Assembly (NCBI GenBank): GCA_964496425.1 | Contig: CAZBZO010000004.1 | Coordinates: 23,118 to 87,117 of the forward strand | From: an uncultured Candidatus Saccharibacteria bacterium | Lineage (GTDB): Bacteria > Patescibacteriota > Minisyncoccia > Phycocordibacterales > UBA9973 | Direction: 5' to 3' | Length of the DNA: 64,000 bases | Shown: positions 1 to 48,159 of the stretch, piece after piece | Numbering within the stretch: position 1 is the stretch's first letter | Layout: each line of letters starts with the position of its first letter | The notes under the pieces: generated by a model | What the model was told of the DNA's origin: nothing | Databases searched by the model: none | The model's input: only the letters and a program-made list of their open reading frames with translations | Program-made: the position numbers and the translations under genes

Positions 1-263
1 GGGTCCCACTGATCAGAAAGCCAGACATCGCGCTCGTAGACCTTTACTGGAGAATCAGTGGAGTACATAGAAAAAATCTCTTTGCCGGAGAAATCACTTA
101 CCCTCTTATAAAGCCCGCGCTCATTGCGAAATGAAAGCCGGCGCTGTACTCGGCACAGCGGGCAAAACGTCGGTGCCGGCACTTTCATCCGCTCGTAAAA
201 ATTGCGATCTTCCTGATCGATAATAAAATCTTGTTTGCAGTTTTGGCAAGTTTTTGTTTCCAT
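1..263 (-). CDS. N-terminal part of a cysteine-rich zinc-ribbon protein that continues past the window start and is a paralog of the 1205..2911 protein. My translation begins METKTCQNCKQDFIIDQEDRNFYERMKVPAPTFCPLCRVQRRLSFRNERGLYKR...SMY...VY...W.SDQWDP.
   Basis: Manual translation of the minus strand from the ATG at 263. It aligns motif by motif with the N-terminus of the 568-aa ORF (FII.., FYE., KV.AP.PTFCP.CR.QRR, NER.LY.R, SMY, W.SD.WDP). It is missing from the ORF track because it has no stop within the window. Confidence 0.6.
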   Translation of the reverse strand, partial: METKTCQNCKQDFIIDQEDRNFYERMKVPAPTFCPLCRVQRRLSFRNERGLYKRVSDFSGKEIFSMYSTDSPVKVYERDVWLSDQWD

Positions 264-265
264 TT

Positions 266-622
266 CTAATTATTATTTGGATCTTCCGATGAAGGCTGAT
301 CAAAAGGATCTATGGTTAACTTCTGTTGATGTATTCCACCTTTATCTGCCATTTCCTTAAAAAAATCTTCTACCGTCTCGTTGAGTTTAGCAACGAGAGC
401 ATCCGAGTGATCACCGCCTTCGTATGCTTGTACAAGAATATCCATCATATTGGCATGTTTTTTATCCATCATAGGATTTTTGCTCAAAGATTGCATGGTC
501 TCAAATGCACTTCTAAAATCTCTCTGATCCACATCCCACTTGATTGATCTGTATGTTATAGATTCTTTATAATTAGTAATCTTTTTTGGGTTAGGGCCTT
601 CGTTGTTACTTTTTGGAGGCAT
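266..622 (-). CDS. hypothetical protein, 118 aa, acidic
   Basis: Complete ORF lying between the hydrolase and the truncated paralog in the same orientation. It has no recognisable motif. Confidence 0.45.
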   Translation of the reverse strand: MPPKSNNEGPNPKKITNYKESITYRSIKWDVDQRDFRSAFETMQSLSKNPMMDKKHANMMDILVQAYEGGDHSDALVAKLNETVEDFFKEMADKGGIHQQKLTIDPFDQPSSEDPNNN

Positions 623-655
623 AATTTTATATTTATCTAATAATTATTCATTATC

Positions 656-1204
656 TCATAATAAATGTATTTTAATGGTAGCGAGAAGCGCTGGGAATTC
701 GCTCATCGGATAAAAATGCCCGGCGTTTGGTAGTTCGTAGTAATCAGTCGAGAGTTTTTCGTGGACAAACCTGGCTTCTTCGATCGGGATGAACGGGTCG
801 TCGAGTGAACTAAACTGCACAATCCATTTTTGATTGCGCTTAATGGCTTCCCAGTTCCACGGCGTATCAAAATAACCACTTGCCTTCTCATCTTCGTGGC
901 CCAAATCTGTATGATACGCAGCGATCAAAACTGATCCGAGGATTTTATGAGTCTCAGCGTAGCGCATCGCTGCTTCAGCGCCCGAAGACCAGCCTAGAAG
1001 AATTGTGTGCTCGTCCGCGCCTAAACTTTCAATAAAGGGCAACCAAAACTCCGCCCGAGCCAAAACCGAGTCAGGATACATGCCGGGCGAAATCACTTCT
1101 ACATCGAGTGTTTCAAGCTCAGACTTAAGCCATGGAAACCATTCGCTATCAGTTGATCCTCCACCATTGCCTGGTATAAAAATGACTTTAATCTCTTGAT
1201 TCAT
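656..1204 (-). CDS. small alpha/beta serine hydrolase (YdeN/RBBP9-like)
   Basis: 182 aa with a GWSSG nucleophile elbow, a downstream Asp and the C-terminal NAGHF His motif. Its start directly abuts the stop of the 568-aa gene, so the two are co-transcribed. Confidence 0.7.
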   Translation of the reverse strand: MNQEIKVIFIPGNGGGSTDSEWFPWLKSELETLDVEVISPGMYPDSVLARAEFWLPFIESLGADEHTILLGWSSGAEAAMRYAETHKILGSVLIAAYHTDLGHEDEKASGYFDTPWNWEAIKRNQKWIVQFSSLDDPFIPIEEARFVHEKLSTDYYELPNAGHFYPMSEFPALLATIKIHLL

Positions 1205-2911
1205 TTAATACACTTCATTTTGATAGCATTCGGGACAATAAATAATCGGTGCATATGCTTCATCATACACTGTCTCTACTTCAACAGCACACTTTGAACA
1301 GTCCCGATTTATAATTTTCAAAAATCGTCTCTTGGCAAGTCTGCGAGTATGACGAACATCGAAACAAACTCTCGGTAAAGGTAGATCCGTTTTGCGGTAG
1401 AAACTTAGTTCATCTTGAGTAATACGATAAACCCCTACTGAATAGGGCTGATCCTTATCTCCACATTCTAATACTTCTTTTAATATAGAATCATCTACTT
1501 CTCCTATCGTCTCAGGCAAATCAGAACTTTTTATAGTTGCCACGTAATTCTTTTTTTCTTTTTCTCGCCATCGATACCCTTTTGAGCCAGCTTCCTCTTT
1601 GGTAATGGGATAAAAATCTATAGCGGCTGTTTCATTGTAAGCAAACGGTGAAAGATCATCCGGGAAATATTCTCCGAAACCATAGGTGATCCCTCGCTTG
1701 TCTACATACGGCATGGCTTTCATATGCTCGATAATTTTAGGTACGAGGGATAAATATTCTTCTTTAGAATATTTCTTGTTTAGAATCGAATACTCGCCTT
1801 TCTTGAGTCCTATGCATCCAAAACAAAAACCTGATCCAGGACAAGAGTCGCTGTAGTAAAGATCATGCGCTCCCATCCAACACTGACTAGAAAAGTAAAT
1901 GTGAGAAATGTTGATCCCACAGTTCTCGGACTCATACACAAGTTCTGCGTGATTCCCCCATTGAAAAAAATCCATAACATCTTGTGCATCAAAAATCCAA
2001 AAAAGATACTTGCCATCTTTCACATTAAGACATCCAAGAGAATTCTTTACATTTTGACAATTGACGAGCCAGTTCCCAGAAACAGTATCAGACTTTAGAG
2101 AATGAATTGAGCGGTGAGGAAATTTTTTCCTGAACTCTTGGAACTGTTGCTTAAACTCCTCCAGGCCAGAAACAGTATTTAGCCCTAGCTCTTTTAGTTT
2201 CGTAAAATACTCTTCCTTTGTATATTTCTTATTGAAAATACAATATGATTGGCTTACCAAATTCACACACCCAATACAGTTGGAGCAATCACGACACGAA
2301 TACAAGAAAAATGATTCTCTACAACCATGGCTTTCTTGTGAAAAAAATGTCTTGTAACAGTTATTACAATCTATACATTCATAACATGACTCACAATCCC
2401 AAACACTAAAACAATCAATGCAATCGGTTATATTTCTTCCGACATAGGAATAGGATGAATCTATACTTCCACTCATACGAAAAACCATATAAGAATTTTT
2501 CATATCATGTGCTCTATGTGTATATTCGCTGTTTACAGATTCCCCTTGTTTAACCAACGCCATACGAGGAACTTTATTTTGAAGCTCAAAAAACTGCTCG
2601 AAGAATGGCCGATTGAAATCATATTCTTGACCATATTGATACGGGTCCCATGCATCGCTGTACCACTCAGATGTACGATAGACTGGAAATGGTGCTTCGG
2701 CAGGATACATACTCAGTATTTTCTGACTAGATAGATCACACTCTCGATAATAGAGGACACGTTCATTCGTTCCCATCATTCTTCGTATCTGCCGACATTC
2801 CGGGCAAAATGTCGGTGGCGCGACTTTGATTTTTTCATAAAACGAAAAATCATCCGGCTCGATGATAAATTCATTTTTACATTTGGCGCAAGCCTTATCT
2901 TGGGATTCCAC
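1205..2911 (-). CDS. cysteine-rich protein with N- and C-terminal zinc ribbons and an internal duplication; function unknown
   Basis: 568-aa ORF. N-terminus has CAKC..x17..CPECRQIRR and the C-terminus has CSKC...CPECYQ. The central region carries dense CxxC/CxC clusters and a repeated NKKY(T/S)KEEY(F/L) segment. Confidence 0.8.
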   Translation of the reverse strand: MESQDKACAKCKNEFIIEPDDFSFYEKIKVAPPTFCPECRQIRRMMGTNERVLYYRECDLSSQKILSMYPAEAPFPVYRTSEWYSDAWDPYQYGQEYDFNRPFFEQFFELQNKVPRMALVKQGESVNSEYTHRAHDMKNSYMVFRMSGSIDSSYSYVGRNITDCIDCFSVWDCESCYECIDCNNCYKTFFSQESHGCRESFFLYSCRDCSNCIGCVNLVSQSYCIFNKKYTKEEYFTKLKELGLNTVSGLEEFKQQFQEFRKKFPHRSIHSLKSDTVSGNWLVNCQNVKNSLGCLNVKDGKYLFWIFDAQDVMDFFQWGNHAELVYESENCGINISHIYFSSQCWMGAHDLYYSDSCPGSGFCFGCIGLKKGEYSILNKKYSKEEYLSLVPKIIEHMKAMPYVDKRGITYGFGEYFPDDLSPFAYNETAAIDFYPITKEEAGSKGYRWREKEKKNYVATIKSSDLPETIGEVDDSILKEVLECGDKDQPYSVGVYRITQDELSFYRKTDLPLPRVCFDVRHTRRLAKRRFLKIINRDCSKCAVEVETVYDEAYAPIIYCPECYQNEVY

Positions 2912-2980
2912 AAGCCAACTCTAGCGCACTCTTTGACTCTATGCAACGAGAGGAGTAGAGTTAAGAAAAACTTCCTTACC

Positions 2981-3901
2981 ATGAAAACAAACATCATAAT
3001 CCTGCTATGGGTGGTGTTTGCTTTCGCAACACTACCACAGAAAACTTGGAGCCAGACTCCATTTTGCGATTACCTTTGCAAGAAACAAGACTCATTGCCT
3101 ATCCGCGAGAAAACGCTATACATAATTTGGCACACAACTGAGGGCCCTTGGCCCGGATGTCGTAATTGGTTGATGCGTGGACCGTGGGGACACTTTGTTA
3201 CCACAAAAACAGGATTTACTGAACGAATCGTAGAAGACGAGCGCTTCGTAGAGCATGCTGGTCATTCTATGTACAATGGAGACACCGCAATATCTAGATT
3301 CTCCGTGAGTATTGAATTCGTACAATATCAGGGTGATACTATTACCCAAGCCCAATACGATAGTGGGATGGTTCTCACTAAATACTTACAGATGAAATAC
3401 TGTATACCTGACAGTTGTGTTTTAATCCATCCAGCAGTGGCATGTTTCTATCCCGGTGACTTCAAATCTAAAAAACGAGTAAGAGGCCGTACAATAATAG
3501 AGACTTATACGACCTACGCTCGAGGACGGAAGCAAGACGCATATGAATTCGCAAATACTGCTTCAAGAGCACGACTGGGAGTCGGACCAGGACCCAGATA
3601 CGATTTGGATGTAGTTATGGGAAGAATGGTTCCTGATGCAGCGCAAGAGAGACTTTTGTATGGAAAAAATTTCTCTATTGCAGAGCTTATAATGTTAAGA
3701 GAAATGATAGAGTATAGGGAAAATCCCATAGCTGTATCAACTTTATCTGTACGGAAATACGAAATATGTAATACCGTCTTGTGGGAAAATGAAATCATTT
3801 TCCAAAAACCCAAAAAGGCATTCTCGATTGATACATATTTCAAAAGAGAAGATGAAATCGGTATTACGGGAAAAGCATTTTTAAAATTTCTTAGCGAGTA
3901 A
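2981..3901 (+). CDS. secreted N-acetylmuramoyl-L-alanine amidase (Amidase_2/PGRP-type domain)
   Basis: The ORF runs from 2900, but the signal peptide MKTNIIILLWVVFAFATLPQKTWSQ begins at 2981. IIWHTTEGPW..., H...IEFV resemble the amidase_2 Zn-binding core. Confidence 0.65.
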   Translation: MKTNIIILLWVVFAFATLPQKTWSQTPFCDYLCKKQDSLPIREKTLYIIWHTTEGPWPGCRNWLMRGPWGHFVTTKTGFTERIVEDERFVEHAGHSMYNGDTAISRFSVSIEFVQYQGDTITQAQYDSGMVLTKYLQMKYCIPDSCVLIHPAVACFYPGDFKSKKRVRGRTIIETYTTYARGRKQDAYEFANTASRARLGVGPGPRYDLDVVMGRMVPDAAQERLLYGKNFSIAELIMLREMIEYRENPIAVSTLSVRKYEICNTVLWENEIIFQKPKKAFSIDTYFKREDEIGITGKAFLKFLSE

Positions 3902-5158: not shown

Positions 5159-6712
5159 TTACATTTTCTGAATTTTCTTACTTACATATGTACCATTATT
5201 TTTAATAATACTGATGATATACATACCAGGCAAAAAATTCTTTGTGTTAAAGTTATTACCTTCTATCCCCACCAACCGAACTCGTCCTATCACGTCGGTT
5301 ATTGTTACCATTTGGAAGTTACCTTCAATCACAATATAGTCGGTAAAGGGATTTGGGTAAACCTTATAATCACTATTAGTAGTAGAAATAACACCGGTTG
5401 GAATTGAACGTTCAAGCATGGCAACCCATATATCGTACTCACCATGGTTGCCTGTAACATCACCGTCAATCGACATACTATGTCCTGCGACGATATAGGA
5501 TCCATAGGAAGTTTGTGTAATTACACATATTCCCCCTTCGACTTCTGTGCCACCGAGGCATTTCTGCCATTCTATATCTCCATCGATAGTGAGTTTCAAT
5601 ATCCAAAAATCATACCAGCCGTGATTACCAGACACATCGCCGTCATTGGACATAGTTGCTCCCGCAACAATATATCCGCCATCAATCGTTTGCTTTACCG
5701 AAAACGATTGGTCGTCCGACACACCACCGAGTGATTTTTGCCATTGGATATTTCCCACTGTATCAAGCTTCACAATCCAATAATCATTACCCCCGTGATT
5801 GCCGGTAACATCAAAGTTAAGGGAACTAGCGTTGCCAGATAAAATATATCCTCCGTCAATCGTTTGTTCAATTGAGTATCCTGCAACATCAATGTCGCTC
5901 CCGCCAAGGCACTTCTGCCACTGTATTACTCCAACCGAATCCAATTTCACCACCCAATAATCAGAGCTGCCATGAATTCCGGAAACATCACCGTTTGATG
6001 AATACGTCCAACCACTGGCGATGTATCCACCATCTTTTGTCTGCCGAATACAAAAAGGGAAATCCACAGATGTGCCTCCCAATGATTTTTGCCATTCGAT
6101 GTTCCCTACGGCATCTAACTTGGCTATCCAATAATCCAAATTGCCGTGGTTGCCAGAAACATCACCATCATTCGAAGCTGAAGCTGAAACTACGATGTAA
6201 CCACCGTCATTCGTTTGGCGAACAGAAAAGGACTCTTCGTCTTCGGTGCCACCAAGGCATTTCTGCCATTCAATAATTCCAAGCGTGTTAATTTTAACGA
6301 CCCAGGTATCGGTCATGCCGTGGTTACTTGAGACATCAAAATCATTAGAGTAACTGAAGCCCGATACAATAAATCCTCCATCAGCAGTCTCTGTAATAGA
6401 GCGTGCTTGATCGGAGCCGCTGCCACCCAAAGACACCTGCCAGATCAGATTTCCACTGGTATCAATTTTTACAATCCAGAAATCATGATCTCCATGGTTA
6501 CCGGACACATCACCGTCATCTGAGTTGCTATAGCCGGCAAAAACGAAGTTGCCATCTGAGGTTGGAGTAAGTGCATACACCACCTCGATGCTACTCCCAC
6601 CAAAGGATTTTTCCCATTTGATTTCAGGCGCTTGCGCTTGTGCAAAATAAAAAGAAAAAATCAATGCCGCACAACTCATGGCTGTCAGCAGGAAATTGGA
6701 AAACTGTTTCAT
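5159..6712 (-). CDS. secreted repeat protein with about 9 tandem ~55-aa propeller-like repeats and a C-terminal T9SS type-A (Por) sorting domain
   Basis: Repeats of consensus W(Q/E)KSLGG(S/T)..D...SI.QT.DGGYI..G...S.DGDVSGNHG..D.W(V/I)VKLD..G.I. The C-terminus YKVYPNPFTDYIVIEG...VTITDVIGRVRL...FLPGMYIISI...NGTYVSKKIQK matches the T9SS CTD pattern. A signal peptide follows the Met at 6712. Confidence 0.75.
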   Translation of the reverse strand: MKQFSNFLLTAMSCAALIFSFYFAQAQAPEIKWEKSFGGSSIEVVYALTPTSDGNFVFAGYSNSDDGDVSGNHGDHDFWIVKIDTSGNLIWQVSLGGSGSDQARSITETADGGFIVSGFSYSNDFDVSSNHGMTDTWVVKINTLGIIEWQKCLGGTEDEESFSVRQTNDGGYIVVSASASNDGDVSGNHGNLDYWIAKLDAVGNIEWQKSLGGTSVDFPFCIRQTKDGGYIASGWTYSSNGDVSGIHGSSDYWVVKLDSVGVIQWQKCLGGSDIDVAGYSIEQTIDGGYILSGNASSLNFDVTGNHGGNDYWIVKLDTVGNIQWQKSLGGVSDDQSFSVKQTIDGGYIVAGATMSNDGDVSGNHGWYDFWILKLTIDGDIEWQKCLGGTEVEGGICVITQTSYGSYIVAGHSMSIDGDVTGNHGEYDIWVAMLERSIPTGVISTTNSDYKVYPNPFTDYIVIEGNFQMVTITDVIGRVRLVGIEGNNFNTKNFLPGMYIISIIKNNGTYVSKKIQKM

Positions 6713-6782
6713 ACGAACGTTTTTTGGTTTAATTTTTGAAGAAATAGAATTTGTCTCCCAAACCATACCACTCAAAACACAA

Positions 6783-6822
6783 AAGCGCAAGGCCGAGGGG
6801 CCGTGCGCTTTTGTTAGTATTT
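6783..6822. terminator. hairpin agcgcaaggcc-gagg-ggccgtgcgct flanked by A/T runs; a bidirectional terminator after rpsP
   Basis: Imperfect 10-bp GC stem with one mismatch. There is a T-run on both strands. Confidence 0.5.
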
Positions 6823-48005: not shown

Positions 48006-48077
48006 ATGATAATAGTATCACCATAGATTCAGTCCAGCAAATTTAACTATACACCATAAACTATTACCTACTATTTG

Positions 48078-48159
48078 TGGGCGCGGAGAGATTTGAACTC
48101 TCAAGAGTTTCCCCATACGCTCCTGAAGCGTACGCGTATACCAGTTCCGCCACGCGCCC
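48078..48159 (-). tRNA. tRNA-Leu (anticodon CAG)
   Basis: Manual fold: acceptor GGGCGCG/CGCGCCC, 3-bp D stem with an 11-nt loop, anticodon stem TACGC/GCGTA with loop TTCAGGA, 13-nt variable arm, T arm GAGAG-TTCAAAT-CTCTC, discriminator A. The CCA is not encoded. Confidence 0.85.

Follow-up and report, generated by a model that had tools for sequence, protein, structure and literature searches.

Introduction

Patescibacteria, the bacteria of the candidate phyla radiation (CPR), account for much of bacterial diversity, with genomes of only ~1 Mb. They are thought to be host-dependent episymbionts with type IV secretion genes, and a 2025 survey counts 5,713 VirD4-like proteins in 2,918 of their genomes, of which only 148 lie near virB4, and leaves the function of these proteins open (PMC12102498). 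The subject here is a family of cysteine-rich proteins, called family F, whose genes often stand beside such orphan ATPases. It was encountered at one end of a 64,000-nucleotide stretch of contig CAZBZO010000004.1 from an uncultured member of this group; the whole stretch is called the window. Three family copies, A568, B590, and C565, belong to this organism, and fetched loci and contigs of it and of other genomes carry L-numbers. Family F is confined almost wholly to Patescibacteria, as sampled here, and consists of cytoplasmic proteins ~570 amino acids (aa) long. Its members are tentatively read as adaptors or clients of the ATPases.

The described systems closest to the family each resemble a part of it. 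The VirD4-like type IV coupling proteins have, in their long form, a finger in common with the last module of the family proteins (ZnR4), and both groups are widespread in Patescibacteria. Unlike these ATPases, the family proteins lack a P-loop or ATPase domain, and the ATPase is proposed as a partner and not as a relative. The terminal modules of A568 share a pattern of two CxxC pairs with the Pfam families zf_Tbcl and zf_Tbcl_2 (“probable treble clef”), with the spacings C8-x2-C11-x24-C36-x2-C39 and C538-x2-C541-x17-C559-x2-C562. Both Pfam families are without known function; their models cover only ~40 residues at each end of A568, which scores below both gathering thresholds.

The Tenebrio molitor antifreeze protein is a secreted, Cys-rich beta-helix of 12 residues per turn, with a disulfide-bonded core and a Cys every 6 residues. 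The middle of the family proteins would share with it the 12-residue period and the small Cys-type residues at regular inward positions, but the family is cytoplasmic, carries Cys or Ser every 3 residues, and swaps Cys with Ser. The last comparison is with the serine hydrolases human RBBP9 and Bacillus YdeN and concerns a hydrolase gene next to A568, not the Cys-rich proteins. In alignment with RBBP9, this gene retains the pocket residues, the GxSxG serine, and both the DDPF and the GHF motif.

Range, Arrays, and Age of the Family

Clustered at 90% identity, the matches to family F number more than 7,000, and every named one is from Patescibacteria and annotated as hypothetical. At 50% identity the number is 5,111 clusters at E <= 1e-3 and 2,206 at E <= 1e-30, and nearly all of 150 clusters among the matches listed are 550-600 aa long. 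GTDB species genomes hold at least 562 confirmed family matches; the 78 loci retained come from Nomura-, Jorgensen-, Lipton-, Staskawicz-, Kaiser-, Sungii-, Morani-, and Magasanikbacteria, among others. Taxon labels are those of the depositors, and one metagenome-assembled genome labelled Bdellovibrionales has a typical Patescibacteria context. The neighbourhood samples described below are the best-scoring 75-80 loci, and the open reading frames (ORFs) of fetched loci are mechanical calls. No description of the family, of its Pfam fingers, or of expanded Cys-rich families in CPR bacteria was found in the literature; because no paper was found describing it, the family is rated as lying outside the known kinds, as perhaps does its fold.

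The original prediction, made from the window alone, had described tandem paralogues. This arrangement is real and is the rule of the family, in which a ~20-kb locus holds between 1 and 12 copies arrayed on one strand, and not the single-copy, scattered gene that was considered as an alternative. In the single-cell genome AH-259-L05, 12 family genes stand back to back on one strand over 21.8 kb (L014:1-21773), and the array continues beyond the fetched stretch on either side. Family genes match the most similar copy in their own locus at a median identity of 43% (maximum 61%) and their best counterpart in other species at a median of 59%; 91% of the family genes have a closer relative in another species than in their own locus. 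Judged by these alignments, the tandem paralogues are ancient. A recent amplification or arms race is ruled out by the low identities within arrays. Phage origin is likewise ruled out: tblastn against 50,697 phage records gave no match, and IMG/VR gave one partial match, so that phage collections hold essentially none of the family.

These results bear on the view that the VirD4-like ATPase passes the proteins to a secretion channel, to be deployed against hosts or phages as exported effectors or as a rapidly evolving set for conflict or defence. Multi-copy tandem arrays beside coupling-protein-like ATPases would suit such a role, as would the presumed host dependence and the type IV secretion genes of Patescibacteria (PMC12102498). 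The view is nevertheless very unlikely. The paralogues are old and have closer orthologues elsewhere, and the lack of any within-locus pair above 61% identity means that there are no recent expansions; the near absence from phage collections weighs in the same direction. According to the survey, the ATPases are almost never near virB4 (PMC12102498). PADLOC has no match for A568, B590, C565, or the hydrolase, no signal peptide is found, and several zinc-stapled domains would resist the unfolding required for export.

Architecture of A568

The modules of A568 are listed below with their window coordinates and the basis of each assignment.

1205..2911, minus strand: A568, full-length family member of 568 aa with a GTG start (ORF list; homologue and paralogue alignments)
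2762..2911, minus strand: ZnR1, residues 1-50, an intact Cys4 set (C8, C11, C36, C39) followed by an Arg-rich helix, CPxCRxxRR (resembles zf_Tbcl)
2636..2761, minus strand: ZnR2, residues 51-92, degenerate in A568, with C58 alone kept (homologous to ZnR4)
2219..2551, minus strand: central repeat R1, residues 121-231, of Cys/Ser-lined ~12-residue units (aligns with R2)
2117..2218, minus strand: helical hairpin joining the repeats, residues 232-265 (DSSP on AlphaFold2 models)
1766..2116, minus strand: central repeat R2, residues 266-382 (hhalign of R1 and R2)
1472..1765, minus strand: long helix and acidic alpha/beta domain, residues 383-480 (AlphaFold2 local confidence, pLDDT, above 90)
1322..1471, minus strand: ZnR3, residues 481-530, a duplicate of ZnR1, half-degenerate in the A568 subfamily (hhalign)
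1208..1321, minus strand: ZnR4, residues 531-568, an intact Cys4 set (C538, C541, C559, C562) of zf_Tbcl_2 type

Profile alignments indicate that A568 is doubly duplicated: both ends carry a double zinc-ribbon module, and a pair of repeats lies between them. The two terminal modules are homologous as a whole (residues 1-90 against 480-568, hhalign 99.7%, E = 5e-27) and in their parts (ZnR1 against ZnR3, 99.4%, E = 6e-22; ZnR2 against ZnR4, 97.8%), as are R1 and R2 (118-232 against 268-384, 99.9%, E = 8e-33). Of the four fingers A568 keeps ZnR1 and ZnR4 intact, and C565 keeps all four. In the ZnR3 of A568, C483 and C516 are kept and position 519 is Val; this module is basic across the family (median charge +5, median pI 9.4).

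ZnR1 and ZnR3 resemble zf_Tbcl, and ZnR1 is modelled as a beta-hairpin and a helix. At the gathering threshold of zf_Tbcl (PF13451, 24 bits) A568 has no match; the 87-aa fragment of B590 in the window reaches 22.2 bits, and 26 of 80 diverse members match at E < 0.1, the best at 4.9e-6. The zf_Tbcl_2 model (PF23477, 27 bits) likewise does not match A568, scores 26.1 bits for C565 and 27.4 bits for the protein P0128, and is matched by 41 of the 80 diverse members at E < 0.1. ZnR4 fits CxxC-x(16-17)-CxxC with the consensus TxYxPxRPExVYCExCY. In A568 it is CxxC-x17-CxxC (C538, C541, C559, C562), the second zinc ribbon that had been noted from the window at the end of the protein.

The ~400 residues between the terminal fingers have no Pfam model. 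R1 includes two CxxCxxCxxC rungs, at residues 176-185 and 206-215, and the hairpin that follows consists of helices 232-242 and 247-261 in both AlphaFold2 models (DSSP). R2 ends in a nearly invariant FGC...YxILNKxYxKEEY motif, with an invariant N378 and with C366 and Y381 conserved above 95%. The domain at residues 383-480 carries the motif GEFFPxxxSPFxYNETxA and itself matches no Pfam model; residues 401-480 have a median family charge of -6. Scans of the three paralogues against Pfam, NCBIfam, PADLOC, and PHROGs detect the terminal fingers only, besides a weak match of the central repeat to phrog_15341 (function not assigned; E = 1.7e-5), and PDB sequence searches with the single protein and with a profile matched nothing.

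Two AlphaFold2 models of A568 have a pLDDT of 80.9 with a predicted template modelling score (pTM) of 0.84, and a pLDDT of 86.7 with a pTM of 0.88. Both repeats end in short strands spaced 12 residues apart, in R2 at 349-352, 361-364, and 373-376, and R1 is the least confident part (pLDDT 58-74). The combined Cys and Ser occupancy of R1 has an autocorrelation of 0.70 at lag 3 and 0.68 at lag 12. From this periodicity and the models, the central repeats would form a narrow solenoid with Cys and Ser at inward positions. Foldseek gives no significant match to a solved structure, the only hints being left-handed beta-helix enzymes at E ~6-8. The profile and structure analysis that had been proposed for A568 thus returned internal duplications and models that are confident overall, and no solved fold to go with them.

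VirD4-Like ATPases as Neighbours

The commonest non-family neighbour of the arrays is a TrwB/VirD4/HerA-like P-loop ATPase. It is present in 27 of 75 family loci, and 24 of its 38 genes adjoin a family gene, 16 of them directly upstream on the same strand. A recurrent order is a sigma-r4/HARE-HTH protein, a 460-aa membrane protein, the ATPase, and then the family array. The adjacency spans different subfamilies of F and both forms of the ATPase, and the B590 subfamily is the one that most often comes directly after the long VirD4-like form. The reciprocal sample gives a weaker signal, with a family gene in 19 of 80 ATPase-centred metagenome loci, but in seven of the eight closest relatives of the long form.

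A zf_Tbcl_2 finger is strongly matched in the long form (~700 aa; E = 1e-11 to 1e-13, 42-50 bits), and the ZnR4 consensus can be aligned to it. Within the ORFs of the fetched family-centred and ATPase-centred loci and of the window, a ZnR4 hidden Markov model matches 246 family proteins and 32 ATPases, and no other ORF. In the long ATPases (L084:6226-8328, L007:2293-4386, and similar ones) the finger lies right after the motor domain, at residues ~450-483, and a low-complexity tail of ~200 residues follows it.

The nearly invariant residues of the family are Cys, Pro, Gly, Asn, and aromatics. As there is no obvious catalytic set among them, the proteins are read as non-enzymatic binding or scaffold proteins. 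Their likeliest working partner would be the orphan VirD4/TrwB-like P-loop ATPase of Patescibacteria, since this ATPase often immediately precedes an array and, in its long form, shares the zf_Tbcl_2 finger. The family proteins may then be adaptors for, or clients of, an ATPase motor encoded apart from virB4, handling protein or nucleic acid, and each anciently diverged paralogue would supply a different specificity. The probability of this reading is put at roughly 0.35. The searched passages of the survey contain no mention of family genes as neighbours of the ATPases (PMC12102498).

Several observations weigh against a partnership with the ATPase. A family gene is missing from 61 of the 80 ATPase-centred loci, where the ATPase sits in a housekeeping block of SecD, SecF, the sigma-r4/HARE-HTH protein, (purC), the 460-aa membrane protein, the ATPase, and pgk, continuing with a DHH phosphoesterase, RNase H, and MurJ (L128:1646-15782 and many of L126-L164). 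With the ATPases in such a block, part of their adjacency to the family could be inherited gene order. No ATPase of this kind is found in the 64-kb window or in contigs L001-L003 of the same organism; in the source genome, the array would have to have moved away from any such gene. The solenoid, for its part, rests on periodicity and on a model in which R1 has a pLDDT of only 58-74. The proteins are also acidic overall (median net charge -7) with only ZnR3 clearly basic, which weakens a simple nucleic-acid-binding reading. The conserved block suggests, in turn, that the ATPase has a core cellular role and does not belong to a mobile element.

The same charge enters the question of whether the proteins are instead RNA- or DNA-binding housekeeping factors that act independently of the ATPase, with paralogues for different RNAs or for steps of ribosome, tRNA, or transcription work, replacing factors that Patescibacteria lack. 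Orthologues do show housekeeping conservation (62-81% across Nomurabacteria), and arrays lie near trmD, the KH gene, rpsP, and truB (window, L172), dnaG-rpoD (L083), and rpoB-rpoC (L171). Conserved Arg-rich helices (R40, R43, R44; R520, R524) come after the treble-clef fingers, ZnR3 is basic, and one source labels a family member “Zn ribbon nucleic-acid-binding protein”. Such a role is unlikely, however, for proteins that are acidic as a whole and in which Pfam- and NCBIfam-type scans of paralogues and members detect no known RNA-binding domain. Up to 12 or more paralogues per genome would be unusual for it, and it leaves the finger shared with the ATPase and the direct adjacency unexplained.

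Cysteines of the Fingers and of the Central Repeats

Cys makes up 5.5% of A568 (31 residues), compared with 0.8% in the other window ORFs of at least 150 aa. Whether these residues are metal sites was addressed by asking, across 508 non-identical aligned family members, if they are kept or lost together. The ligands of ZnR1 (C8, C11, C36, and C39) are 95-97% conserved and co-vary, and those of ZnR4 (C538, C541, C559, and C562) are 97-98% conserved. ZnR2 serves as a control site, because it is intact (CxxC...CxxC) in only ~35% of the family, C565 included. Its Cys count is four in 177 members, one in 245, none in 80, two in six, and three in none, and its three variable ligands have pairwise correlations of 0.97-1.00. 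As terminal Cys are kept or lost as whole sets, the terminal fingers behave, by this sequence criterion, as structural Cys4 metal sites.

The central Cys behave differently. They exchange freely with Ser, Val, and Thr among paralogues, and their correlations do not exceed 0.47. The rung at 176/179/182/185 holds zero to four Cys in 33, 75, 147, 113, and 140 members, respectively, and at 206/209/212/215 the fraction of members with Cys at all four positions is 0.66, compared with 0.63 expected under independence. Such graded, independent counts indicate that most central Cys are probably individually replaceable small core residues and not obligate metal ligands. The metal binding proposed from the window is accordingly divided: it fits the all-or-none Cys sets of the ends and does not fit the graded CxxC clusters of the middle.

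A metal-storage protein, metallochaperone, or redox protein, whose central CxxC and CxxCxxCxxC runs bind many metals or Fe-S clusters, is for the same reasons the most improbable of the readings considered. The Cys content and the two complete rungs of A568 speak for it. So does the conservation of C209, C212, and C366 above 90% with almost no Ser, and the low confidence of R1 could follow from a cofactor missing in the model. These points are set against the free exchange of central Cys between paralogues, the fit of the rung counts to independent variation where a true site such as ZnR2 is all-or-none, and the gap between the two sets of correlations. No conserved His or other metal ligand appears in the family column counts.

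The Locus in the Window and Its Serine Hydrolase

Beside A568, the start of the window holds the following genes.

656..1204, minus strand: RBBP9/YdeN-type serine hydrolase of 182 aa (PF06821 and RBBP9 similarity)
266..622, minus strand: orphan ORF of 118 aa between the hydrolase and the second family gene (ORF call)
1..263, minus strand: B590, first 87 codons visible, the gene extending past the window edge (translation)

The original prediction had placed these four genes on one strand with essentially no gaps, and this is borne out: all are on the minus strand, with intergenic gaps of 0, 33, and 2 nucleotides from A568 through the hydrolase and the 118-aa ORF to B590, packed tightly enough for the co-transcription that had been proposed. 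The hydrolase start codon immediately follows the A568 stop codon. The shared N-terminal motif (CxxC ... KVxAPxPTFCPxCRxQRR ... NERxLY ... SMY ... VY ... WxSDxWD) is present in A568 and B590, whose N-termini are 50% identical over 84 ungapped residues (E = 3e-27). A scan of window positions 1-3300 for promoters and terminators gave no interpretable signal.

Public contig L003 is identical to window 1-2911 and continues past the window edge. It carries B590 whole (590 aa, L003:3675-5447), and this intact gene rules out the reading of the upstream copy as a pseudogene fragment. The order past the A568 block is B590, a divergent 280-aa gene, C565 (565 aa, L003:6395-8092), and truB; the three family copies are ~40% identical in pairs. 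The 280-aa gene lies on the opposite strand just past window position 1 (L003:5463-6305, minus strand) and has only one weak homologue (L065) among the fetched family-centred loci. Public gene calls of A568 (524 aa; P0001, L001-L003) begin at Met45, which is 44 codons too late: homologues of 62-81% identity align from residue 1, and the GTG at 2911 gives back the N-terminal zinc ribbon (window 2780-2911, minus strand) that is present in every homologue. No transmembrane segment or signal peptide was found in A568.

The hydrolase had been recognized from its GWSSG motif as an RBBP9/YdeN-type enzyme, and the assignment stands. It matches Ser_hydrolase (PF06821) with 32.3 bits (cutoff 22), human RBBP9 over its full length at E = 5e-50 (structures 9fcr and 2qs9), and, much more distantly, Bacillus YdeN (1uxo) at 2.4e-9. 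Its GWSSG, AAY, DLG, EDE, DDPF, and GHF motifs align with human RBBP9 residues. The aromatic-aminopeptidase pocket of RBBP9 is formed by Tyr99, Leu103, Glu108, and Phe140 (PMC8866121), and these residues are conserved in the alignment; the 182-aa protein is probably an aminopeptidase. Homologues with 60-83% identity are found in varied bacteria, and the subfamily is patchy at 60-65% identity, with members in Burkholderiales, Limnocylindrales, and some Patescibacteria.

Viewed from the family, the hydrolase is not a partner. It occurs in none of 75 family-centred loci of other species, three of which show only weak, opposite-strand alpha/beta-hydrolase matches. It is missing beside the closest orthologues of A568 (81% and 75% identity), which sit in other contexts, and in all 11 other loci with the A568 subfamily. 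Viewed from the hydrolase, the result is different, and the reading that it is never associated with the family, which the 75 loci suggest, is rejected by this sampling. Six of nine hydrolase-centred loci of other organisms, or six of eight once a locus clearly from other bacteria is set aside, lie within ~1-3 kb of a family gene. In L167/168, L171, and L172 a family gene ends at most 4 bp before the hydrolase start, in L169/170 and L176 one lies within ~0.8 kb, and in L165/166 a family fragment and two VirD4-like ATPases stand beside the hydrolase. Three hydrolase-centred loci have no family gene, one of them in a clearly non-CPR genome. At least three subfamilies are represented among the adjoining family genes.

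The window, L167, L171, and L172 share synteny of the truB region, which in L172 extends to rpsP, the KH gene, and trmD; owing to this shared synteny, these loci count as roughly one ancestral arrangement. By a rough estimate the chance of the remaining pattern is ~1%, which is suggestive of a link and does not prove one. The hydrolase is a recurrent but optional neighbour, and the link is one-sided and in part inherited synteny. The co-occurrence in related genomes that had been put forward as a check is accordingly seen in hydrolase-centred loci and not in family-centred ones.

Whether the family proteins and the hydrolase form a dedicated module, as had been proposed for this locus, can be weighed on the same evidence. 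The family proteins would present substrates to the aminopeptidase, gate it, or regulate it, or would themselves be processed by it. The directly abutting start and stop codons in the window and the proximity in six of nine hydrolase-centred loci, with at least three subfamilies involved, are in its favour. It is quite unlikely given the 75 family-centred loci, the A568 orthologues, and the 11 other subfamily loci that lack the hydrolase, and given that four of the positive loci represent roughly one ancestral event. Members of the hydrolase subfamily with 60-65% identity are also present in bacteria without family genes nearby, such as Xylophilus and a genome with complex I, and family N-termini (MET..C) are not aromatic and so are not substrates of the RBBP9 type. 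The 118-aa ORF is found only in contigs of the same organism. If the ATPase is the partner, the hydrolase gene and the orphan ORF would be co-transcribed passengers, at most lineage-specific accessories.

The 118-aa ORF has no Pfam, NCBIfam, or PHROG match of note and only a marginal PADLOC match, to DpdD (E = 1.1e-3). The slot after the hydrolase is variable elsewhere: it holds a 96-aa MarR-like HTH protein in L172 (8637-8927) and a 298-aa unknown in L171 (8592-9488), and is empty in L167.

An Amidase_2 (N-acetylmuramoyl-L-alanine amidase) gene at window 2900-3901 (plus strand) is divergent from A568. The divergent pair of an Amidase_2 gene and a family gene is also present in the sister contigs L167/L168, where the family gene is of a different subfamily. 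Between rpsP and the KH-domain gene, window 5159-6790 (minus strand) encodes a secreted 543-aa repeat protein with, judged by eye, several GG..DGD.SGNHG..D.W..K.D-type repeats. Its C-terminus is a Por_Secre_tail sorting domain (PF18962, 32.8 bits, cutoff 27), and sorting signals for type IX secretion would not be expected in Patescibacteria. Scans of the 64 kb for tRNA and Rfam families give a single tRNA (Leu-CAG) at 48077-48159 (minus strand), far from the locus, and no other Rfam family at gathering score.

Implications for Patescibacteria

In a broader form of the ATPase reading, family F would be the missing partner set of the orphan ATPases and, with the membrane and sigma/HARE-HTH proteins, would make up a substrate-handling machine independent of type IV secretion, in which a solenoid of unmatched fold is capped by zinc ribbons. 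This form is a tentative possibility. No description of a machine of this kind was found in the literature. If it is true, the machine would have a dozen or more ancient paralogues, each with its own specificity.

The results have consequences beyond the locus. Co-variation of Cys is a cheap way to separate real metal sites from Cys-rich cores, and the central repeat of the family may represent a new kind of cytoplasmic beta-solenoid. The VirD4-like ATPases of Patescibacteria, about two per genome, are unexplained in the literature because they are unlinked to type IV secretion genes, and the family offers a concrete, testable candidate for their role. With genomes of ~1 Mb, Patescibacteria can hold as many as 12 old copies of this one family side by side, an outlay that points to a role central to their lifestyle.

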